Shown piece after piece: positions 6,046-46,408 of a stretch of 47,773 nucleotides of DNA. The notes below the pieces were generated by a model. It saw only the letters and a list, made by a program, of their open reading frames with translations, was not told the origin of the DNA and ran no database searches. Within the stretch, counting starts at the first letter, position 1. Each line of letters begins with the position of its first letter. The position numbers and the translations under genes are program-made. Origin of the DNA: Candidatus Uhrbacteria bacterium (GTDB taxonomy: Bacteria > Patescibacteriota > Patescibacteriia > UBA9934 > GWF2-40-263); NCBI GenBank assembly GCA_016235605.1, contig JACRJW010000075.1:1-47773 (forward strand), given 5' to 3'.

Positions 6046-7372
6046 ACAATGCATGAAGAGCCTTACGTGCGGCGACGCGATCATCCCAAGGAATTTTCTT
6101 GCCGCCTGCGACGGCCATGATAGGTTCGCTTCCCTTGCCGGTGATGAGGACAAGATCGTGAGGCACAGCGAGATCGACCGCGAACTGGATCGCCTTCCCA
6201 CGATCCAGAATCTTGAACAGATTCACGCCTTCTTGCTTTCCAGCCGCGCGAGCGGCGTTTGCAACCTCATCGATGATGCTCTCTGGATCCTCATCATACG
6301 GATCTTCGTTGGTGACAATCACGATGTCGTCATGCGCTGCCGCCAGTCTGCCGAGTATCTCACGACGTGCCACATCACGCCCACCGCCAGCAGAACCCAG
6401 AATGTGTATCAGACGTTTATGCTGAACGAGTTTGAGTGTGTCGTATACGGCCGTAAGCGCCGCCGGTTCATAGGCATAGTCCACGATCACCGTGAACGGC
6501 TGGCCTTCGTCGATGCGCTCCAAACGTCCTGGGACAGAATCGAGAGATTCAACACCGTGGCGCATCACTTCCGGTGAGACGCCCAAGACCTTTACCGTCG
6601 CCATCGCTGCAAGTGCATTCTCTAAATAGAACCGACCGGCGGGTTTGAGATGATAGGTTGTTTCGCCAACCGTGAAGGTCGTACAAGATCCCGTAAAATT
6701 TACGTCCGTAGCAGTCATGGGAGTGGTATTCAAGCGTGTGGCAAGAGTTCCCGCCTCGCCCACCGCAAAACCACTGTAACGATCTGCGCCACAGGCAAGG
6801 AACGACTCCGCGTGTGGATCCTGAAGGTTTACCACGATGGACTTTTCGATCACTGTGTCGTTGATCGTCTTGCGCGGCAACCTGCCGAGTCCTTCAAAGA
6901 GCTTGAGTTTAGCCGCCTTGTAATTCTCAAACCCGCCGTGCGCTTCGATGTGCTCGGGCGTGAGGTTGGTAAACACCGCGACGTCGTAGTTGATGCCGAT
7001 GTGGCGAGACTGCGCGATTCCCTGCGATGACGTTTCGATGACGGCATAGCGACACCCCGCAGAGACCATCTCACGCAACAACTTCTGCGTCTGAAACCTT
7101 CCAAGCATGGTCATCTTTTTGTCGTTCACCCATTCACGCTCTGCCACTTTGAAACTCGCGGTCGTCGTCCAACCAACGCGATGCCCTGCGTGCTCCAAGA
7201 GGCGGCCAATGAACTGGACGGTTGTCGACTTCCCGTTGGTTCCCGTGACACCGATCACGACCAGTTTCTCCGAAGGATGGCCATACAAAAAAGCCGCCGC
7301 ACGAGCAAGGCAGTAGTGATACGCCCCAATCACAGATTCAGGCACGAAGCATCTGAGAACGGATTTGAGCAT
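6032..7372 (-). CDS. murE: UDP-N-acetylmuramoyl-tripeptide synthetase MurE
   Basis: GVTGTNGKSTT P-loop, Mur ligase central and C-terminal domains, TNEDPYDEDP (DNPR-like) motif; trimmed to ATG 7372, 4 nt after the murD stop. Confidence 0.85.
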   Translation of the reverse strand: MLKSVLRCFVPESVIGAYHYCLARAAAFLYGHPSEKLVVIGVTGTNGKSTTVQFIGRLLEHAGHRVGWTTTASFKVAEREWVNDKKMTMLGRFQTQKLLREMVSAGCRYAVIETSSQGIAQSRHIGINYDVAVFTNLTPEHIEAHGGFENYKAAKLKLFEGLGRLPRKTINDTVIEKSIVVNLQDPHAESFLACGADRYSGFAVGEAGTLATRLNTTPMTATDVNFTGSCTTFTVGETTYHLKPAGRFYLENALAAMATVKVLGVSPEVMRHGVESLDSVPGRLERIDEGQPFTVIVDYAYEPAALTAVYDTLKLVQHKRLIHILGSAGGGRDVARREILGRLAAAHDDIVIVTNEDPYDEDPESIIDEVANAARAAGKQEGVNLFKILDRGKAIQFAVDLAVPHDLVLITGKGSEPIMAVAGGKKIPWDDRVAARKALHALYGGS

Positions 7373-8843: not shown

Positions 8844-8851
8844 AGTGATGA

Positions 8852-8923
8852 GGTCGTAGGTTTTAGGTGGTAGGTGGTAGAAAAATATCCGAATGTGCTC
8901 CCTACAACCTACTCCCTACAACC
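8852..8923. repeat. type-B heptad-repeat imperfect palindrome between GT2 and murD
   Basis: C-less arm GGTCGTAGGTTTTAGGTGGTAGGTGGTAG pairs with G-less arm CTACAACCTACTCCCTACAACC (about 18-19 of 22 positions). Confidence 0.7.
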
Positions 8924-9572
8924 TTTTTCGGATATGAGCGACCCTCACCACCACCATCGCCTTGACGATCTGATACGACATGCGTGCATATTGTAGCACA
9001 GCTCTCAGAATACCGACTTTCTGGTATTTTCGGCGGATCGTGAGGCCTGGAAGTTTGACCGCGCACAAGACGGCTCCGCGAGAGCGACAAAAATAATTGA
9101 GTGCAGATTCGATCATGAAACCGTGAAGGAACCTCCCTGGGACTCCTTCAAACACAGATCGTTGCATGGCCCGTTCACCGGAGATGAGTGGAAGATGTTT
9201 CGTCAAAGATGTGATCCAACGTCCTCGATCACGAAGCCCGACGTTCATGGCACACGCTCCGTCCACCACAGGCGCGACGAGTCGCTCAATATGGTCGACG
9301 TTGAGTCCAATCAAGTCTGCATCGAAGAACACGACGATAGGGGCGTCTGTCTGAGTGACGCCAAAACGCATTGCCTCGCCTTTTCCACTATTTGGAAAAA
9401 GCTCATGGACCCTTGCCCCTGCCGCTCGTGCGACGTGTCCGGTCCGGTCGCTTGATCCGTCTGAGACAACGATCACCTCCTGGATGAAGGGCGACGCCTT
9501 GACGACAGAGACGACGGTCCCAATCGTCACTTCTTCGTCGTACGCGGGAATAATCGCTGTCACTTTTGTCAT
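8916..9572 (-). CDS. family-2 glycosyltransferase
   Basis: IIPAYDEE, VVSDGSSD and FFDADL (DxD) motifs; ATGA overlap with upstream gene. Confidence 0.8.
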   Translation of the reverse strand: MTKVTAIIPAYDEEVTIGTVVSVVKASPFIQEVIVVSDGSSDRTGHVARAAGARVHELFPNSGKGEAMRFGVTQTDAPIVVFFDADLIGLNVDHIERLVAPVVDGACAMNVGLRDRGRWITSLTKHLPLISGERAMQRSVFEGVPGRFLHGFMIESALNYFCRSRGAVLCAVKLPGLTIRRKYQKVGILRAVLQYARMSYQIVKAMVVVRVAHIRKRL

Positions 9573-14338: not shown

Positions 14339-14414
14339 GGGTATTAGGTTGTAGGGAGTAGGTTATAGGGAGAAAATTTCTGCAAGCCTACAACCTAAAA
14401 CCTACAACCTACAA
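14339..14414. repeat. type-B heptad-repeat imperfect palindrome between ftsW and murG
   Basis: GGGTATTAGGTTGTAGGGAGTAGGTTATAGGGAG ... CCTACAACCTAAAACCTACAACCTACAA; the right arm overlaps the last ftsW codons. Confidence 0.7.
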
Positions 14415-15511
14415 TGTTTAGAAACATTCAACATCACTCCCACCGCCGCCATCGAGATCGCGAGCGACGTCCCGCCGTAACTGATAAACGGCAGTGGAAT
14501 CCCCGTCATGGGCATGAGAGCCACCATCGAAGCGATATTTACGAGCGCCTGAATCACGATCCACGCGGCAATGCCAACCACAATATATTTAGAAAATGGA
14601 TCTGGCGCGCGAGAAGCGATCGATAAAGCTCTCCACAAGAATAGCAAGAAGAGGCCAATGAGAAGCGCACTCGTTAACAGCCCCATTTCCTCGCCAATGA
14701 CCGCGAAAATCGAATCACTCCCGACCTCTGGAAGATACTGGAATTTCTGGCGAGAGTGACCGTAGCCTACGCCGAAAAATCCGCCAGAGCCAATCGCGAG
14801 CAAGGCTTGGTTGATGTGATACCCAATCCCTTGTGGATCAAGTTCTGGATGCAGGAACGTGGTGAAACGCGCCGCGCGATACGGCGCCGCGGTAATCAGC
14901 AGCGCCAATCCTGCGATGCCGGTGGTAATGAGACCCAGCACATAGGACATCGGCGCTCCGGCGACGAAATAAACAACCAGTGACATCGCGACGATCACCG
15001 ACATGGTCCCTACGTCCGGCTGGAGAATCATAAGCAACATAATCGCAGAAAGCACGAGGACGAACGGGAGAAATCCTGAGTGCACATCGCGGACGCTGTG
15101 TTTGTCACGTCCGCCCAACCACGCGGCAAGATAAAATAAAAATGTCAGTTTGACGATCTCAGACGGCTGGAGAGAAAAGACGCCACCGATCGTAATCCAA
15201 CTATGCGCAGAGCCGATCCCGGCAGAGAGCCCAGGAATAAACACGAGCACCAAGAGCACAAGTGAGAGGATGAGCAGGTTCCAGGCGTGCGTTTTCCAAA
15301 ACGCGTAAGGGATGCGAGCGAAGGCAAAGAGCGCCGCGATGCCGGGAATGAGCCCGAAGATGACTTGGTGTTTTATAAAATAGTATGAATCCGAAAATTG
15401 CTCGTAGCCACTGGGTGAGGAGGCGGAGAGGAGCATCACCAGCCCAAAAAGAATGATCGTGAAAACGATCCCCAACAGCAGATAGTCCATGTGCCCTGTT
15501 GATCGAGACAT
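14402..15511 (-). CDS. ftsW: SEDS-family peptidoglycan glycosyltransferase FtsW
   Basis: FtsW/RodA/SpoVE multi-TM pattern; ORF-track TTG start 15529 trimmed to the first ATG (MSRSTGH); ATG 15490 is also possible. Confidence 0.85.
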   Translation of the reverse strand: MSRSTGHMDYLLLGIVFTIILFGLVMLLSASSPSGYEQFSDSYYFIKHQVIFGLIPGIAALFAFARIPYAFWKTHAWNLLILSLVLLVLVFIPGLSAGIGSAHSWITIGGVFSLQPSEIVKLTFLFYLAAWLGGRDKHSVRDVHSGFLPFVLVLSAIMLLMILQPDVGTMSVIVAMSLVVYFVAGAPMSYVLGLITTGIAGLALLITAAPYRAARFTTFLHPELDPQGIGYHINQALLAIGSGGFFGVGYGHSRQKFQYLPEVGSDSIFAVIGEEMGLLTSALLIGLFLLFLWRALSIASRAPDPFSKYIVVGIAAWIVIQALVNIASMVALMPMTGIPLPFISYGGTSLAISMAAVGVMLNVSKHCRL

Positions 15512-15521
15512 GTCAGGGACA

Positions 15522-15640
15522 TCTCCCAAAACTCACGATCTTTGCTTTCACGGGCGCCCAGGCACCTCCTCAACGTACGTGTGTAGTACGTTTCGGAGGC
15601 TGCCAGCCCGTTCAAGCAAATCTCATTGAGTTTTGGGAGA
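15522..15640. repeat. about 120-nt rod-like hairpin element, copy 1
   Basis: Perfect 14-bp closing stem TCTCCCAAAACTCA/TGAGTTTTGGGAGA; the interior is near-identical to 43804-43894. Confidence 0.75.
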
Positions 15641-15647
15641 GATCTGG

Positions 15648-16706
15648 TTAGGTAACAAGAGCGTCAAGAAGCGCAAACGAAGCGCCGACGGCAGCAACGA
15701 CCATCGAGATGACCCACAGACGCATCACGATCTGCGGCTCGGGCCAGCCGATGGCCTCAAGGTGATGATGGAATGGTGAAGACCTGAACAGACGGCGTTT
15801 CAAGACGCGACGGAAAAAAAGTTGTACGAGAACCGACAAGGACTCGATGACAAACACAAAACCGATAATCGGTAAAAACAGCGCAGAGTTGGTGAGCATC
15901 GCGACCACACCAAGCGTGACACCCAATGACATCGCCCCTGTGTCGCCCATGAAAAAACTGGCTGGGTGGATGTTGAACCAGAGAAACGCCAGGAGGGCGC
16001 CCAAAATCACTCCGCAAAAAACCGCGAGGTCATAATGCCCTTGGGCAAACGCAATCACGGCGTAGGCGCCAAAGGATGTGAGCAGTGCGCCGCCAGCAAG
16101 TCCATCAAGCCCGTCGGCTTCGTTGACCGAGAAAGCCGTCGAGACAATCACGAGAATGAAGAACGGCACATACCAAAAGCCGATGTTGAAGTCGCCGACA
16201 AACGGGACATGCAAAAGATCCCAGTCGAGTTTCACGCGAAACCACCACGCGCCGATGACGGCGATGGCGGTGTAGATAAGCAGGCGATGGCGCATGCGCA
16301 ATCCCCCGCCCTTGGGCCCGATGCCACGCACGTTGAAATAATCATCGACGAATCCGACGATCGCCGAGGCCACGAGCGCACCCAGAGGCAAGAGCGTTTC
16401 AGATCGAGTTAAAAAGTTTAAGCGTGAAAGCAGAGAATCGGCAGGAAGAAACGGTGCGAGATAGTACAAGACGATCGCGAGCACCAAAACCGTCCACCAA
16501 ATGAGAATCCCTCCCATGGTAGGCGTGCCGCGTTTTTTTTCGTGGAGCTTGGCAAAGACGGGCGCATGTTCTTCGCTACGGATCGACTTGCCAACCTTCC
16601 AGCGATGCAGGGCACGAACCAACAGTGGCGCCCACGCAAATGCCACCACGAACGCCACGGCAGAGAGCAGAAGCACTCGGACGATTTCAAACGATTCGAG
16701 GTTCAT
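15648..16706 (-). CDS. mraY: phospho-N-acetylmuramoyl-pentapeptide transferase MraY
   Basis: Glycosyltransferase family 4 multi-TM pattern, VNEADGLDGLAGG and MGDTGAMSLG motifs. Confidence 0.9.
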   Translation of the reverse strand: MNLESFEIVRVLLLSAVAFVVAFAWAPLLVRALHRWKVGKSIRSEEHAPVFAKLHEKKRGTPTMGGILIWWTVLVLAIVLYYLAPFLPADSLLSRLNFLTRSETLLPLGALVASAIVGFVDDYFNVRGIGPKGGGLRMRHRLLIYTAIAVIGAWWFRVKLDWDLLHVPFVGDFNIGFWYVPFFILVIVSTAFSVNEADGLDGLAGGALLTSFGAYAVIAFAQGHYDLAVFCGVILGALLAFLWFNIHPASFFMGDTGAMSLGVTLGVVAMLTNSALFLPIIGFVFVIESLSVLVQLFFRRVLKRRLFRSSPFHHHLEAIGWPEPQIVMRLWVISMVVAAVGASFALLDALVT

Positions 16707-24706: not shown

Positions 24707-24961
24707 ATGAAGAACAAGTTATTTGTCGGCTCCCTCCCATGGGCAACCGATGACGCCGCCCTGATGGAGATCTTCGCCAAGTTTGGTGAAGTCGTCTCAG
24801 CGCGCGTTGTCACTGACCGGGAGAGCGGCCGCAGCCGCGGGTTCGGCTTCGTCGAGTTTGCTGACGACGCTTCCGCTGCCGCCGCCATCGAAGGCGCTGA
24901 CGGTATGATGGTCGAAGGCCGCGCGATCAGCGTGTCCCTCGCCCGTCCCAAAGCGGAATAA
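24707..24961 (+). CDS. RRM-type RNA-binding protein
   Basis: RNP2 KLFVGSL and RNP1 RGFGFVEF motifs. Confidence 0.85.
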   Translation: MKNKLFVGSLPWATDDAALMEIFAKFGEVVSARVVTDRESGRSRGFGFVEFADDASAAAAIEGADGMMVEGRAISVSLARPKAE

Positions 24962-25092
24962 TGTCTGAAACCGGCGATCTGCTCGGGCTTCGGCTCACAA
25001 CAGCCTCACCGTACATCCGTGTACGGCTCGGCCGTTGATCGCCTCCAGCCCGTCGCATCTCATCCGGTTTCCAGCCATTCTTCTCCAGAAGT

Positions 25093-25124: not shown

Positions 25125-25167
25125 GGGAGCTAAGCTCCCGCGCCACGGAAGCTAGACTCCCGTAGAT
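25125..25167. repeat. 43-bp direct repeat, left copy
   Basis: GGGAGCTAAGCTCCCGCGCCACGGAAGCTAGACTCCCGTAGAT, identical to 26150-26192. Confidence 0.85.
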
Positions 25168-25204
25168 CAATTAAAAACCTGCCATGAAGAACCGAGGACG
25201 TGCA

Positions 25205-26149: not shown

Positions 26150-26192
26150 GGGAGCTAAGCTCCCGCGCCACGGAAGCTAGACTCCCGTAGAT
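26150..26192. repeat. 43-bp direct repeat, right copy
   Basis: Identical 43-mer 1025 bp downstream of the left copy. Confidence 0.85.
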
Positions 26193-26195
26193 TAA

Positions 26196-26224
26196 TCAAA
26201 AACCCCACCGCTGATGGGTGGGGC
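26196..26224 (-). terminator. intrinsic terminator of the 26249..27382 gene
   Basis: Minus strand CCCCACC-catcagc-GGTGGGG followed by TTTTTGATT. Confidence 0.6.
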
Positions 26225-39930: not shown

Positions 39931-39946
39931 AGGGTAAAACCTTTTC

Positions 39947-40060
39947 TGATCACGGCAAGACAGATGGATTTTCGACGAATGGTCTGGCGAGCCCCACCTG
40001 ACCCGGTAGCGTGGGGTCGGACAGACCTGAGGAGAAAAGACGGCTGTCTTGCCGTGATCA
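39947..40060. other. 114-nt rod-like hairpin between frr and glyQS
   Basis: Perfect 17-bp stem TGATCACGGCAAGACAG/CTGTCTTGCCGTGATCA enclosing GGTCTG/CAGACC and CCCCAC/GTGGGG helices; it abuts the frr stop codon. Confidence 0.65.
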
Positions 40061-40615
40061 CTATACAGTCATTATTTCTTTTTCTTTCGTGTCTCCTGTC
40101 TCTTCCACCTTGTCAATATACTCTTTTGTCATCTTATCAACTTCATCGAACAGCTTAAACTTTTCGTCTTCACTCACGGCTTTGTTCTTTTCCATGTCAA
40201 CGACTTCCCCACGAATTTCCTCTCGCACTTGGCGCAGCGAAACACGCGTCTCCTCCAAAAACTCTTTCATCTTTTTGACCATGGCCTTGCGGTTATCTTC
40301 CGTCATCTGCGGCATCAGAATACGGATGACCGTGCTGTCCACCACCGGCGAGAGGCCAACGCCCGCATCACGGATGCCTTTTTCGATGTTTTTGAGAAGA
40401 CTCTTGTCCCACGGATCGATCACAATCGTTTTCGCATCGGCCGTGGAGATCGAAGCCAAGCCCTTGATCTCCATGGTTGCGTCGTAAGCAGAAACAGAAA
40501 TATTCTCCACAAGCGCTGGTGTGGCACGGCCGGTGCGCAACTGTCCCAACTCTTTTTGGAGATGCAGGAGTGCGGCTTCAAACGCCGGTTTTTTTTCAAC
40601 CAAGATCGCATGCAT
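40061..40615 (-). CDS. frr: ribosome recycling factor
   Basis: 184 aa; ...LRTGRATPALVENI.V.AYD....IKGLASIS... typical RRF sequence. Confidence 0.9.
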   Translation of the reverse strand: MHAILVEKKPAFEAALLHLQKELGQLRTGRATPALVENISVSAYDATMEIKGLASISTADAKTIVIDPWDKSLLKNIEKGIRDAGVGLSPVVDSTVIRILMPQMTEDNRKAMVKKMKEFLEETRVSLRQVREEIRGEVVDMEKNKAVSEDEKFKLFDEVDKMTKEYIDKVEETGDTKEKEIMTV

Positions 40616-42570: not shown

Positions 42571-42692
42571 ACGGACAATAGTATAGCACGCTGCCAAAAT
42601 GGCTCTGTGATGTCCAGCATAGTAAACAGATGTTTATCAGCTTATCTTAACTAATTTTAGATAAAATTCGGAAGCTTAGCTCCCGAAGAGTC

Positions 42693-42721
42693 TTGACAAA
42701 GTTGACAAAATATGATAGACT
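42693..42721 (+). promoter_or_regulatory. sigma70-like promoter of the accessory block
   Basis: TTGACA (42693-42698), 17-nt spacer, TAGACT (42716-42721); a GGAAGCTTAGCTCCCG box lies 7 bp upstream. Confidence 0.5.
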
Positions 42722-42758: not shown

Positions 42759-42884
42759 AGAAACTTTTGAAAAAAGATGAGATGCGAAGTGCTGGAGGTG
42801 AGTAAAGGGCGAGGCGTAGGTAAATCCTACGGTGAGGTCTTTACGAACCGAAGCACGAGCAGATCGCTTTTTTCAAAAGTTTCT
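42759..42884 (+). ncRNA. 126-nt hairpin closed by a perfect 18-bp stem
   Basis: AGAAACTTTTGAAAAAAG/CTTTTTTCAAAAGTTTCT; inner helices GTAAAG/CTTTAC and CGTAGG-taaat-CCTACG. Confidence 0.55.
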
Positions 42885-42897
42885 AAACATTCTCTGG

Positions 42898-43418
42898 GGA
42901 GAGAGTACTAGGCCAAGTAAATGGCCATCAGGCAAAGGTGTTAGGTATTAGGTTATAGGTTGTAGCAAATAACTACATATCTACGATCTAAAGCCTAATA
43001 CCTAAAAGCCGGTTCCTGCATGTATCTCTCCTAACTCGATGCATTCAGCAACCGGTTTTTTGTCTGCCTACCACCTACAACCTAATACCTACTACCTGAT
43101 TTCTTCAGCCTCATGGAGGAGAGAGTACCCGTCCATCCAATGCTTCGGCAGAGGATGGCGGTGATCGCCAAATGGTCCGACTAGGCCTCGGCTTACTCGT
43201 TCCATATGCATGGCGATCACGAAGCATATTGTCCTTCGGGAGAATCACTGCTTCATCACTACCTCCAGTAGGTTGCAGGGATCATCCGATGCAGAAACTC
43301 GGAGGAGAGAGAAAAGGACCACCAAATGACTCGACTGGGTTTACTCACTCGATTCATACGCCCGGTGATCCTCGGCCTACACCAGCCCTCGGGCAGGTCA
43401 CTGGACCATTCTTCTCCG
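42898..43418 (+). ncRNA. three tandem GGAGAGAG-box structured units (unassigned RNA family)
   Basis: Unit 1 42898-43031, unit 2 43114-43267 (closing helix TGGAGG/CCTCCA around three hairpins, two capped by cUUCGg), unit 3 43300-43418; units 2 and 3 share collinear sequence blocks. Confidence 0.45.
43009..43062 (+). terminator. terminator-like hairpin plus T6 inside the leader (possible attenuator)
   Basis: CCGGTT..TGCAT..ATGCA..AACCGG followed by TTTTTTG; its loop contains the 3' strand (TATCTCTCC) of the unit-1 closing helix. Confidence 0.4.
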
Positions 43419-43489
43419 AATTCCTGTGTCGGACCAGAACCCACCGACCAGAACACCGGCAAGCCACAAACTTGCCAAAGGAAAATCAC

Positions 43490-43711
43490 ATGGATCATTC
43501 GATCCTCCTCCACCGTGCCCCGACTCCGTTCTTCTTCTGCACCGCCGACGAGGACCGCTTCCTGGCAACCGGCATCGCCAACTGCACCGGCACCGAGGTT
43601 CCCAGCGCGGCGCTTCGTCGCCGCTTCGGCGTCCCGGTCTACGTCGTCCCCCGCGGCACCAACCGCATCCCGCCCAGCGCCAACCAGGAGCTGGTGGCAG
43701 TCGCGAAGTGA
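43490..43711 (+). CDS. 73-aa hypothetical protein (first ORF of the GC-rich island)
   Basis: ATG 43490 preceded by AAGGAAA and by hairpin GGCAAG-ccacaaa-CTTGCC; GC3-rich from this point; the upstream part of ORF-track 43172..43711 is the structured leader. Confidence 0.45.
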   Translation: MDHSILLHRAPTPFFFCTADEDRFLATGIANCTGTEVPSAALRRRFGVPVYVVPRGTNRIPPSANQELVAVAK

Positions 43712-43788
43712 ACGGCTGACGCGACCGGGAACTCACGGTGAGGGTGTGCACAACACACTCTCACCGATCCCTCAAAGCACATCAGGAA

Positions 43789-43909
43789 CCTCTGCAAAAC
43801 TCGCGATCTTTGCTTTCACAGGCGCCCAGGCACCTCCTCAACGTACGTGTTTAGTACGTTTCGGAGGCTGCCAGCCCGTTCAAGCAAATCTCATCGAGTT
43901 TTGCAGAGG
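43789..43909. repeat. about 120-nt rod-like hairpin element, copy 2
   Basis: Closing stem CCTCTGCAAAACTCG/CGAGTTTTGCAGAGG; the interior differs from copy 1 at only 2 positions. Confidence 0.75.
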
Positions 43910-43950
43910 TTTGATCAATAACTGATGTCCTTCGAGGGATTACCAAACTC

Positions 43951-44133
43951 TATAGTCATCACACCATGAAAGAGGACTTTAGACGCCACGCCTGTAGATG
44001 GGATGCGCCGTCCTGGAGCGTGGAAAAACCGCAGAGGTATCCGTAGATACCTTGAGGATTTTTCCACGCGAAGGACAAGCAGACCGCCACGGGCGTGGAT
44101 GGATAAATCCTGTTTCATGGTGTGATGACTATA
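43951..44133. repeat. 183-nt rod-like element bounded by perfect 21-bp inverted repeats
   Basis: TATAGTCATCACACCATGAAA (43951-43971) and TTTCATGGTGTGATGACTATA (44113-44133); inner helices CCACGCC/GGCGTGG, GTCCT/AGGAC, CGTGGAAAAA/TTTTTCCACG, AGGTATC/GATACCT. Confidence 0.7.
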
Positions 44134-44269
44134 TTGACCTCCCAGTTCCTCTCGTCAAGGAATACATCTTCAAAAAACCCGGCCAGCTCAGCTGGCCATC
44201 TGGAGCGCTCGGGCTTGGCAGCCTGTGCACGACGAAACTCCAGAAAATTTCCTTAAGGAGGAAAACGCC

Positions 44270-44938
44270 ATGGGAACCAAAACACCAATCGTGATGCCCG
44301 ATCGCGCCGTTCCCCTGCCCGCGCCAGCCCGCAAGTCCAAGAAGCCCGCCAGCCCCCCGACCATCCACCAGGTCGCGGAGTCGGCCAAGCGCTTCTGCAA
44401 GGAGATGAGTCTCGGGGACGCGTTCGTGGCACCGCTCTTCGCCTTCGCGGTCAGTTCGGTCCATACGGCGCAGAGCCTTGTGCGCTTCGCGGTCGCGGCC
44501 GTCCGTGCCGAGCAGGGGCGCAGCAAGCTCCGCGGCGACCGCCACGAAATCGTGAATGCCTTCAAGGACTACCTCGAGAAGAACCGCCAGTACGACTTCA
44601 GGGCTCCCAAGCAGGAGCAGGAGGCTCGCAACCTTCTGCTGCGTGGGATCGAGCAGGGCGAGTTCCTTCGCCGCGGCCCCGCCGTGACCGAGGTGATCCT
44701 CGCGTGGACCATCCCGGCGTTCGACGCGGTGGAGGTGTCCGACTTCGCGCAGATCGATCTCCCCAACATGATCAGGGGGAACCTCCGTCTGGCGGAGTGG
44801 CTCCTCCAGAACGCGCTCAAGGACACGCCGGAGCAGAAGGCGCTCTCCGAGTTCACCGCGGCGTACGAGGCCGCCAAGGCGAAGGACGAGGAGTCCGAAG
44901 AGGACGCCGGGGACGAGGACGAACAGGCAGCGAGCTAG
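44270..44938 (+). CDS. 222-aa hypothetical protein with acidic C-terminal tail (island ORF2)
   Basis: AAGGAGG then 7-nt spacer then ATG 44270; very strong G/C at third positions; no family recognised. Confidence 0.65.
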   Translation: MGTKTPIVMPDRAVPLPAPARKSKKPASPPTIHQVAESAKRFCKEMSLGDAFVAPLFAFAVSSVHTAQSLVRFAVAAVRAEQGRSKLRGDRHEIVNAFKDYLEKNRQYDFRAPKQEQEARNLLLRGIEQGEFLRRGPAVTEVILAWTIPAFDAVEVSDFAQIDLPNMIRGNLRLAEWLLQNALKDTPEQKALSEFTAAYEAAKAKDEESEEDAGDEDEQAAS

Positions 44939-44962
44939 CCATGAACGGCTAGCGACCACACG

Positions 44963-45044
44963 GGGCGAGACGACTCTGTACGAGAGTCGTCTCGCCCAGC
45001 CCTAAGAGATCATGAGGCAAGCCTCGTGAACTGCTAGGGCTTCA
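44963..45044 (+). repeat. 82-nt double-hairpin 3' module, copy A
   Basis: 15-bp hairpin GGGCGAGACGACTCT-gtacg-AGAGTCGTCTCGCCC, then CCCTA..CATGAGG-caag-CCTCGTG..TAGGG. Confidence 0.75.
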
Positions 45045-45107
45045 ACCTTCTGCGCCTTGCCCAAGGCAACTGTTTTTTCCACCAATCACTACAACCAGGA
45101 GTCCCCA

Positions 45108-46259
45108 ATGCGCGAATTGACCTTCGCCGACAACGGCACCGTCGCCCCTGGCGACGAGAACGCTCCCGACCTCTGGGAGCTCGCCCTGGACAATCTCGAC
45201 ATCGAAGTCGAAACCCGCCCCTGGCGCGAGATGGACGAGTTCGAGGCCCCGGAGCAGATCTGGGACGAGACGAACGCGCTCGCGCAGGCCGAGGCGGAAG
45301 CCGAGGCCGACAAGTACAAGTTCGACGACGAGACTGACGAGATCGGCGAGGCGATCTACACCGGTGGCTACGACTACCACCGCCCCCGCGATCGCTTCGA
45401 CGATCAGGCCGACGAGCTCAAGATCCAGAACCACACGCTCGTGCGCAAGTACAGGTTCAAGGTGACGGATATCCTGGGAGTCAACGGACAGCTCCTCGGA
45501 GTCGACTACCTCGCTGTGGTGCTCGCCGCGTGCAAGGCGGCCGACGAGATCGCGGATCTCGCCGGCAACGGTGAGGTCTGCAGGGTCATCGCGCAGGCCA
45601 GCGGCTGGAAGGGCGAACTCCCCACGAGGCTCTCGGGCTTCGGGGTGGAAACGTTCTACCGCAGTGCGGGTGCCCTCCAGACCCGTGTCGCCGAGATCAA
45701 GGCCCGCAAGCCGAAGCACAGCGTCATCGTGATGCCCGACCGTCGCGTCGTAGAGCCCGTCCCCTCGCAGACCCCGAGCCGGTCGAAGGGCGCGCCGGTG
45801 ATCCTCGTGGTCCCGACGCAGAAGCCCGAGGGGAGCGACCTCTTCGGTCGGGTGAAAACCCCATCGGGTCTGGCGTTCCGGTGCGTGTGCGGCTGCGGCA
45901 ATCTCGTTCTCGAGAAAGTCGCCGTCGTACCGCCCACCAGTGCGATGCGCGACCGGCAGAACGGCGGCCGCGTGGGATCGAAAGATCTCTGGCGCCACGC
46001 GTTCGGCGAGCGGTGCATCCGTCGGTTCGGCCGCGGATTCTCCCTCAAGGAGAAGATGAACAAGATGATGGACGAAGAGTCCAAGCGCGAGGCCGCGAAC
46101 CGAACCCTGCGTCCGCGCTTCGGGGACGTCATCGGCCACGGTGGCGCCTTCGGCGGATCGGGCAAGGGCCCCACGCCGGGCCAACTCTCCCACCAGGCCG
46201 CACGGGCGGAGGCCGACCGCCAGCTGCGTCTCAAGATGCAGTCGGCGGGCAGGAAGTAG
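45108..46259 (+). CDS. 383-aa hypothetical protein: acidic N-region, CxCxC cluster, basic C-region (island ORF3)
   Basis: AGGAG then 6-nt spacer then ATG 45108; GC3-rich; shares an IVMPDRxV..P.P segment with ORF2. Confidence 0.65.
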   Translation: MRELTFADNGTVAPGDENAPDLWELALDNLDIEVETRPWREMDEFEAPEQIWDETNALAQAEAEAEADKYKFDDETDEIGEAIYTGGYDYHRPRDRFDDQADELKIQNHTLVRKYRFKVTDILGVNGQLLGVDYLAVVLAACKAADEIADLAGNGEVCRVIAQASGWKGELPTRLSGFGVETFYRSAGALQTRVAEIKARKPKHSVIVMPDRRVVEPVPSQTPSRSKGAPVILVVPTQKPEGSDLFGRVKTPSGLAFRCVCGCGNLVLEKVAVVPPTSAMRDRQNGGRVGSKDLWRHAFGERCIRRFGRGFSLKEKMNKMMDEESKREAANRTLRPRFGDVIGHGGAFGGSGKGPTPGQLSHQAARAEADRQLRLKMQSAGRK

Positions 46260-46301
46260 ATCCACGCGATCTACACGGCCAGCTCAACTGGCCACGGACG
46301 A

Positions 46302-46381
46302 GGGCGAGCGATTCTGTACGAGAATCGTTCGCCCGACCCTAAGAATCCATGAGGCACGCCTCGTGAACTGCTAGGGTTTCA
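46302..46381 (+). repeat. 82-nt double-hairpin 3' module, copy B
   Basis: GGGCGAGCGATTCT-gtacg-AGAATCGTTCGCCC, then CCCTA..CATGAGG-cacg-CCTCGTG..TAGGG; collinear with copy A. Confidence 0.75.
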
Positions 46382-46408
46382 TACCCAAACTCTCTCCCAA
46401 GGAGAAGC

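Follow-up and report, generated by a model that had tools for sequence, protein, structure and literature searches.

The rod-like DNA repeats described here are probably members of a large family of ~125-nt palindromic, non-autonomous mobile elements of the ERIC/Correia/RPE/REPIN kind, expanded in a clade of Patescibacteria comprising relatives of Candidatus Uhrbacteria. They were found in a 47,773-nucleotide stretch of a Candidatus Uhrbacteria genome (contig JACRJW010000075.1; here called the window). Copies have been gained at new sites, where they fill spacers of only a few bases between packed genes, at least one has entered a gene in frame, and some have been inherited vertically for a long time. 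The members are multiple and dispersed, 121 to 127 nt long, and contain neither an ORF of their own nor a transposase gene. We found no description of such repeats in the literature on Patescibacteria and the candidate phyla radiation, and the family is apparently undescribed.

Copy 1 (15518-15644, minus strand) is a 127-nt rod that lies between mraY and ftsW, as in the original prediction, and fills their spacer, with the mraY stop at 15648 on one side and the ftsW ATG at 15509-15511 on the other. Relative to the dcw genes it is sense oriented, where "sense" refers to the strand carrying the conserved motifs, the window minus strand for both copies 1 and 2. Copy 1 scores 137.6 bits with a covariance model (R1) built from copy 1, copy 2, and a copy in a related genome (L003), and 96 bits with a second model (R2) built from 88 members; copy 2 (43786-43912, minus strand) scores 104.7 bits. 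The copy 2 core is 96% identical to copy 1 over 109 nt, and its outer stem is common to two metagenome members (L186 and L124). Most of the initial description of this pair stands: a shared 91-nt interior with two differences (15537-15627 aligned with 43805-43895) has exactly two mismatches, the closing stems are unlike between the copies and each is perfect (TCTCCCAAAACTCA/TGAGTTTTGGGAGA and CCTCTGCAAAACTCG/CGAGTTTTGCAGAGG), and the listed interior helices are all found in the minimum-free-energy folds. The mismatches are a loop G/T and a stem G/A; this G-to-A stem change is real but lies at 43820, not at 43817 as first given, and the A.C that it creates on the plus strand is indeed a G.U on the minus strand in the fold of copy 2. 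Copy 1 folds at -69 kcal/mol on the plus strand and -74.8 to -75.8 kcal/mol on the minus strand, and copy 2 at -67.6 and -77.6 kcal/mol, respectively; for both strands of both copies the z scores are -8.6 to -11, and none of 200 shuffles folds equally well.

The element had been thought to be present twice, but covariance-model searches show five clear members in the window plus a degenerate sixth rod, with three on each strand. The R1 search added two window members (42759-42884, plus strand, and 24958-25081, minus strand) together with members at three other loci (L005, L006, and L027), and the R2 search added 43985-44099 (plus strand) and the weak rod at 39946-40061. Two members belong to a second subfamily (GAUGAGAUGCG type). 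One is at 42759-42884 (plus strand; 108.5 bits with R2) and forms one arm of inverted repeat I4/I5; the other, at 24957-25082 (minus strand; 91 bits with R2), overlaps with its 3' end the stop codon of a convergent gene (24707-24961, plus strand) coding for a protein with an RRM_1 domain. A long 183-nt variant (43951-44133, plus strand; core 43985-44099, 62.3 bits with R2; inverted repeat I6) is inverted relative to copy 2, 38 nt away, and folds at -115.5 kcal/mol (z, -13.5). The degenerate rod (39946-40061, plus strand; 26.9 bits with R2) has weakened core motifs (CAGAUGGAU ... AGACGGC) and folds at -68.1 kcal/mol (z, -7.3). A promoter-like site (42693-42721, plus strand; TTGACA-17-TAGACT with a TG extension), identified by its consensus match of 10 of 12 positions, is 37 nt upstream of the member at 42759 on the same strand.

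We note several features of the DNA around these members. A 67-amino-acid "ORF" (43915-44118) inside the 183-nt rod is a false ORF created by the rod. A 179-amino-acid ORF (43172-43711) between the inverted members at 42759 and 43786 was considered as a partner gene and rejected, being of low complexity (Pro/Arg/Gly rich) with no Pfam match; from its sequence it is probably not a gene, and the region between these members (43100-43780) may be noncoding. A GGAGAGAGTAC motif is repeated at about 42897, 43117, and 43303.

Scanning a metagenome collection with a degenerate DNA pattern from the conserved core yielded at least 120 loci, with ~95 distinct full-length members among those listed (median length, 125 nt; 5th to 95th percentile, 121 to 127 nt). 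Because one sequence pattern was used to gather the members, conservation of the motifs within it is partly ascertainment; the member statistics given below treat related copies as independent and are thus inflated, and the flanking genes are simple ORF calls. Longer variants of 165 to 185 nt with the same core are present in marine-sediment contigs. The MraY protein of the window is 83% identical to those of two Candidatus Uhrbacteria metagenome-assembled genomes (L002 and L003), and the L003 copy is 71% identical but at a different site, between murG and a tRNA-Lys gene, with 13 base pairs compensated in the three-sequence alignment. Only 4 of 80 other Patescibacteria mraY loci (620 kb) carry a member (L003, L005, L006, and L027), and the expansion has therefore occurred in the lineage of the window. 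Exact 22- and 23-mers of the core have no match in genome or metagenome contig collections, and the degenerate core pattern has none in viral contigs. An Rfam hit to a known RNA was a stated way of refuting the original prediction, and there is no Rfam match at any threshold: at the gathering threshold, Rfam 15 reports only tRNAs in the window, and permissive searches of copy 1 (E values up to 10) and eight member loci (E values up to 1) return only noise. Tandem or hybrid copies occur at two loci (L159, 7788-8039; L138, 104-363), in which adjacent members have an identical 3' half and different 5' halves, and a further member lies between tRNA-Ile and tRNA-Phe genes (L150, 755-1053).

The members share a common anatomy. 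An outer stem of ~17 to 18 bp has free sequence around an AAAA/UUUU core, and inside it GAUGAGAU pairs with AG(A/G/C)UCGC to give a bulged A, a U.G wobble, and a tandem G.A/G.A loop. The middle of the rod has two or three further covarying helices with small purine loops between them, and the apical part consists of CCGAG-N-CGUA, the apical loop, and UACG-K-UGAGG. One strand thus carries a fixed asymmetric core (the bulged A, the U.G wobble, the tandem G.A/G.A loops, CCGAG-CGUA...UACGKUGAGG, and AGNUCGC), and the 3' motif AGNUCGC is at least 90% conserved though absent from the search pattern. The outer 10 to 12 bp are the most variable alignment columns, with only the AAAA/UUUU core recurring, and there is no conserved terminal inverted repeat across the family alignment; the arms are nonetheless complementary within each copy. 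In a plain MAFFT alignment of 88 distinct members, standard pairs occupy 92.3% of pair cells compared with 65.5% in column shuffles, 29 of 32 pairs have double-sided changes, and the covariation score is 0.664, as opposed to 0.166 for shuffles and 0.09 to 0.16 with partners slid by one to three columns. Uncompensated changes in further copies had been named as evidence against a structured element, and these additional copies instead keep compensated stems.

The pairing is also strand specific. The U.G wobble is present in 85 of 88 members, and in the variable outer stem of the sense strand, wobble pairs outnumber A.C/C.A by ~62 to 22. The sense RNA fold is the more stable in 93 of 94 members (mean, -64.0 versus -50.7 kcal/mol for antisense), with 350 G.U pairs in sense folds compared with 113 in antisense folds; the weak hint first given, that the minus strand is the relevant one for copies 1 and 2, thus finds strong support in the family as a whole. 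Folding with DNA parameters also gives the sense strand the greater stability, and RNA and single-stranded DNA are therefore indistinguishable in this way. On the antisense strand of the elements, stop codons are depleted, with 124 open frames compared to 93 ± 6 in dinucleotide-preserving shuffles (93 members), and the sense strand has 41 compared to 35 ± 5; the antisense depletion may be related to insertions overlapping or entering coding sequence.

The mraY-ftsW junction is empty in relatives of the window. The mraY gene (15648-16706, minus strand; Pfam Glycos_transf_4 and MraY_sig1) is upstream of copy 1 and ftsW (14402-15511, minus strand; Pfam FTSW_RODA_SPOVE) is downstream, and the minus-strand order is mraY stop, 3 nt, copy 1, 6 nt, ftsW start. 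The longest ftsW ORF (14402-15529) starts at a TTG within copy 1, but N-terminal alignment to L002 and L003 gives the ATG at 15509-15511 as the real start. In 10 relatives, including the closest two (L002 and L003), the spacer is -4 to 13 nt and the site is unoccupied; in the closest relatives, 1 to 12 nt separate mraY and ftsW, and the L002 junction reads "CTAAC ATG." A candidate target-site duplication flanks copy 1, with the left copy, TACCTAAC, at 15647-15654 (minus strand) including the mraY stop TAA, and the right copy, TCCCTGAC, at 15512-15519 (minus strand) followed directly by the ftsW ATG. These match at six of eight positions, and at five of six in the core (CCTAAC/CCTGAC), and the position of the ATG directly after the CCTGAC repeat is like that in the undisturbed L002 junction. 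A Logan contig with an identical MraY ends 45 nt into the element, a typical assembly break at a repeat. Unrelated palindromic inserts of 80 to 184 nt are present in the mraY-ftsW spacers of other Patescibacteria (L004, L006, L011, L024, and L028), with which L175 2900-2990 is also listed, and hairpin insertion at this junction has therefore arisen repeatedly.

Target-site duplications had been proposed as a check, and across the family, flanking direct repeats with at least six of seven matches are present at 16 of 89 elements compared with 3 to 8 in shifted controls, a weak 6- to 8-bp excess, and most copies have none. In one locus (L103), a member is in frame inside the gene coding for NAD-dependent DNA ligase (ligA); residues 10-277 and 336-459 of the predicted protein align with residues 6-274 and 282-405 of E. 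coli LigA, and the element encodes 42 residues between the aligned parts. This is a single case among the ~95 members listed; candidates for further in-gene insertions (L179/L106 and L121) were rejected, as the open frames on either side of them lack homology and are short.

No partner enzyme is evident at these loci. The window genes are ordinary housekeeping genes, and a Pfam scan finds among them no integrase, transposase, or reverse transcriptase; nor does either of the latter two, or any other partner, adjoin a member in the member loci scanned. Searching the window and 1.3 Mb of loci yields neither a parent insertion sequence nor a trans-acting transposase, and the Y1_Tnp domain is absent from every scanned ORF. 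The genes beside the elements are diverse, with no ORF family in more than five loci (clustering of 85 member loci), and solo half-elements, including any flanking a gene, are absent except at contig ends (nhmmer with half-element profiles). A link to a known transposase family, which would have tied the rods to an existing class, is thus not seen in either the window or the member loci.

The gene contexts of the members are not uniform. Between co-directional protein genes there are 16 sense and 30 antisense members, with 14 between convergent and 8 between divergent protein genes. At tRNA genes, 14 sense members lie 0 to 8 nt upstream, compared with two antisense members upstream and one member downstream (binomial P values of 0.004 for orientation and 0.0003 for position, 16 upstream versus 1 downstream). 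Several of the tRNA-upstream members have promoter-like sites 16 to 45 nt further upstream, although across the members the sense-side excess of upstream promoter-like sites is not significant (16/86 versus 10/87). Neighboring stop codons are closer to the 3' end of the element than to the 5' end (medians of 0.5 and 8 nt; P = 0.0007), and neither this asymmetry nor the tRNA bias is explained by random insertion alone. There is no T-run after the rods on either strand, and a terminator scan finds none at the element ends. As for the structured small RNA or processing site of the original prediction, most copies are unlikely to be independent small RNA genes, since promoters would not fit and the elements are in either orientation relative to protein genes; a cis-acting role in processing, stability, or tRNA leaders is possible.

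Old copies are also retained. Another locus (L157) is syntenic with window positions 18 to 25 kb (amino acid identities of 85% for CTP synthase, 59% for phosphoglucose isomerase, and 73% for the RRM protein), and its member at 6121-6247 is orthologous to that at 24957-25082, being in the same place and orientation with the RRM stop codon overlapping the 3' end. The two are only ~65% identical, yet both are complete rods (sense, -72.4 and -71.8 kcal/mol; antisense, -54.2 and -60.1 kcal/mol for the window and L157 copies, respectively), so that selection, or else conversion from other copies, must have preserved the pairing at this site. Similarly, L003 and L006 each have a rod at the murG/tRNA-Lys junction, with very different sequences. 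Such in situ retention of structure over deep divergence, as judged from these comparisons, suggests a host-level function.

Of the identities first proposed, an ERIC- or MITE-like palindromic unit is supported by the multiple copies, the empty sites, the degraded flanking duplication, and the in-frame ligase insertion. MITEs are shorter than about 400 bp; their terminal inverted repeats, which serve as transposase binding sites, are conserved, and a target-site duplication flanks each copy. The rods resemble them in having dispersed short copies without a transposase gene, and in presence or absence between relatives (the 10 empty mraY-ftsW junctions and the ligA insertion), but have no conserved terminal inverted repeats. 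Correia elements (Neisseria MITEs) are likewise rods, of 100 to 155 bp, but they carry promoters and an IHF site as well as a TA duplication and conserved 26-bp terminal repeats, none of which was found in the family here. They are co-transcribed with neighboring genes and cleaved by RNase III in mRNAs (PMC10969869), and serve as the model for the RNA-level effect proposed below. Rickettsia palindromic elements (RPEs) can be inserted in frame in protein-coding genes that survive the insertion (PMC10969869). The likeness to our family includes palindromic repeats of 100 to 150 bp, a reduced genome, the lack of a known transposase, and in-frame insertion (here in ligA of L103). Nearly half of RPE copies are in genes, however, compared with one case among the ~95 members listed here, and the sequences are unrelated.

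ERIC sequences are ~127-bp imperfect palindromes in transcribed intergenic regions, in either orientation, with copy numbers differing among related genomes, and form long RNA stem-loops able to alter mRNA decay (PMC3184786, PMC10969869); they are flanked by TA or a TA duplication, and their terminal inverted repeats are conserved (PMC3184786). Our family is similar in length, in its intergenic location in either orientation, and in its variable copy number, but has variable termini, a conserved asymmetric interior, and any duplication is 6 to 8 bp; moreover, the host is in another phylum, the sequences are dissimilar, and neither Rfam nor BLAST connects the two. REPINs are hairpin repeats with compensatory changes, long vertical persistence, and a presumed single-stranded intermediate, and have conserved ends, a variable middle, and a linked RAYT gene (PMC3116915). 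The rods conserve the core and vary at the ends, and there is no RAYT among the scanned ORFs. With neither the conserved termini of MITEs nor the conserved ends of REPINs, the family is therefore placed in no named family.

Several other identities were considered and, on inspection, rejected. Integron attC sites have R''/R' boxes (RYYYAAC ... GTTRRRY) in a fixed orientation after cassette ORFs, whereas the rods have variable termini lacking R boxes and are in both orientations within housekeeping operons. A likeness to the hammerhead core (CUGAUGA...GAAA) is present only in window copies, which have no three-way junction, and a likeness to group II intron domain V (GAGCCGUA/UACGGU) is seen only in a subset, at a covarying position. 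A K-turn or box C/D is excluded by the lack of a 3-nt bulge and by failure of the alternative pairing, and SRP RNA and 6S RNA by the multicopy occurrence and the lack of an Rfam match.

The interpretation of the rods as mobile repeats leaves some observations unaccounted for. Random insertion does not predict the sense and position biases at tRNA genes. The termini, in contrast to those of classical MITEs, are the least conserved part of the element; only a weak duplication signal is seen, missing from most copies, and no partner enzyme was found in the window or beside any member. A tentative alternative, to which we give limited weight, is that the rods are host-serving, cis-acting structured RNAs, forming a processing or stability module at transcription unit boundaries (for example, as a double-strand RNase substrate) and at tRNA leaders, which spread by duplication and is now selected as sense RNA. 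This would accommodate the massive stem covariation around an asymmetric core with its U.G wobble and tandem G.A loops, the consistently greater stability of the sense strand, the 14 sense members 0 to 8 nt 5' of tRNA genes (several with promoter-like sites), the full rod kept by an orthologous copy at ~65% identity, the diverged rod at murG-tRNA-Lys in L003 and L006, and the sense orientation of copy 1 inside the dcw operon. It fits poorly, however, with the 30 antisense and 16 sense members between co-directional genes, such that most operon mRNAs carry the weaker antisense rod, yet the sense features are kept. The member within a coding sequence, the lack of room for a dedicated promoter at most copies, the short (0 to 13 nt) mraY-ftsW junction in most relatives, and the lack of an Rfam family also count against it. 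A host-serving role and a mobile origin can coexist, through domestication.

Other explanations differ in how the rods would move. The hairpins of IS608 and REP that are recognized by Y1 transposases have bulges or mismatches at fixed places, and Y1 transposition makes no target duplication. The strand-specific imperfect hairpins here, with a bulge and mismatches at fixed places, would suit mobilization as folded single-stranded DNA by a single-copy HUH/Y1 transposase (of the RAYT or IS200/IS605 type) encoded elsewhere, as would the lack of both a conserved terminal inverted repeat and a linked gene. The compensatory changes and long vertical persistence also resemble those of REPINs (PMC3116915). 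We nonetheless regard this as unlikely, given that REPINs conserve the hairpin ends and vary the middle, the reverse of the pattern here, that there is no conserved GTAG/CGTC-type terminal tetranucleotide, that a weak 6- to 8-bp duplication signal is present, that no protein scanned has a Y1_Tnp match, and that the window members are not one-stranded (three minus, three plus). SINE-like spread, with sense RNA from tRNA-leader master copies trimmed at the 3' end by RNase P and reverse transcribed to give daughters in either orientation, could explain the sense bias, the positions 0 to 8 nt ahead of tRNA genes, themselves preceded by promoter-like sites, the G.U-tolerant strand-specific pairing, and the tighter abutment of the element 3' end to its neighbors (0.5 versus 8 nt to stop codons; P = 0.0007). 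This evidence is circumstantial, and with no reverse transcriptase near any copy scanned, no poly-A or other 3' tail, and no 5'-truncated copies found, we consider it very improbable. The rods are intergenic hairpins, as are ordinary transcription terminators, but for these to be terminators or a chance likeness of two hairpins is barely credible in light of the missing T-run, the 96% identity of copies over 109 nt, the approximately 100 members with shared conserved motifs, and the z scores of -8.6 to -13.5.

If the rods are non-autonomous mobile repeats, as we favor, their propagation would need a folded single strand, either single-stranded DNA or RNA, whose core is presumably recognized by an enzyme encoded elsewhere. 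Once inserted, an element would be co-transcribed with its neighbors as a rod of ~55 bp, which could be a natural double-strand RNase substrate or a 3'-end protector, by analogy with the Correia and ERIC elements. Insertion of copy 1 would have broken an original stop-start overlap of mraY and ftsW, so that the two genes are now separated, and would have brought a Shine-Dalgarno-like GGGAGA run, base-paired within the stem, to a position 10 nt upstream of the ftsW start.

Other repeats are also present in the window. A second, unrelated palindrome family has AGGTTGT/AGGTWRT-like units (2934-2975, 8848-8924, 14340-14427, 42936-43005, and 43056-43100) that form hairpins of 65 to 85 nt (z, -4 to -7), one of which fills the ftsW-murG spacer, which is 0 to 1 nt in L002 and L003. 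There are also short GGGAGCTAAGCTCCC-type hairpins (25125-25179, 26150-26204, and 42667-42687), of which two 55-nt copies, 96% identical, are on either side of a purine/uridine phosphorylase gene, and one terminator-like copy follows the DNA polymerase III delta' gene. The 44000-46400 region is 64% G+C compared with about 53% elsewhere, has two long ORFs without Pfam matches (44129-44959 and 45042-46265, with both strands open in the second), and is bracketed by direct repeats of 53 nt (44992-45044 and 46329-46381) and 22 nt (44177-44198 and 46273-46294).

The genomes of Patescibacteria are very small and tightly packed, and in the usual view they are poor in repeated DNA. A single 48-kb housekeeping stretch nonetheless has six rods of one family together with a second palindrome family, even inside a cell wall and division operon. 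More speculatively, the rods could be an undescribed class of strand-specific structured elements of Patescibacteria (with a bulged A, an invariant U.G, three tandem G.A loops, and freely covarying stems) that has been domesticated as transcription unit boundary modules at tRNA leaders and operon junctions, kept at orthologous sites over deep divergence, and read by a dedicated protein, either for RNA processing or as a new hairpin-specific mobilizing enzyme. At the practical level, the repeats break assemblies, create false ORFs (as at 43915-44118), and shift start codon calls (as for ftsW). With about 100 natural variants showing clear covariation and absent from Rfam, the family is a ready case for asking which protein reads an asymmetric hairpin core. 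It is also relevant to the ways in which minimal genomes keep selfish hairpins or come to benefit from them, and may shed light on the processing of tRNA and operon transcripts among uncultured bacteria.
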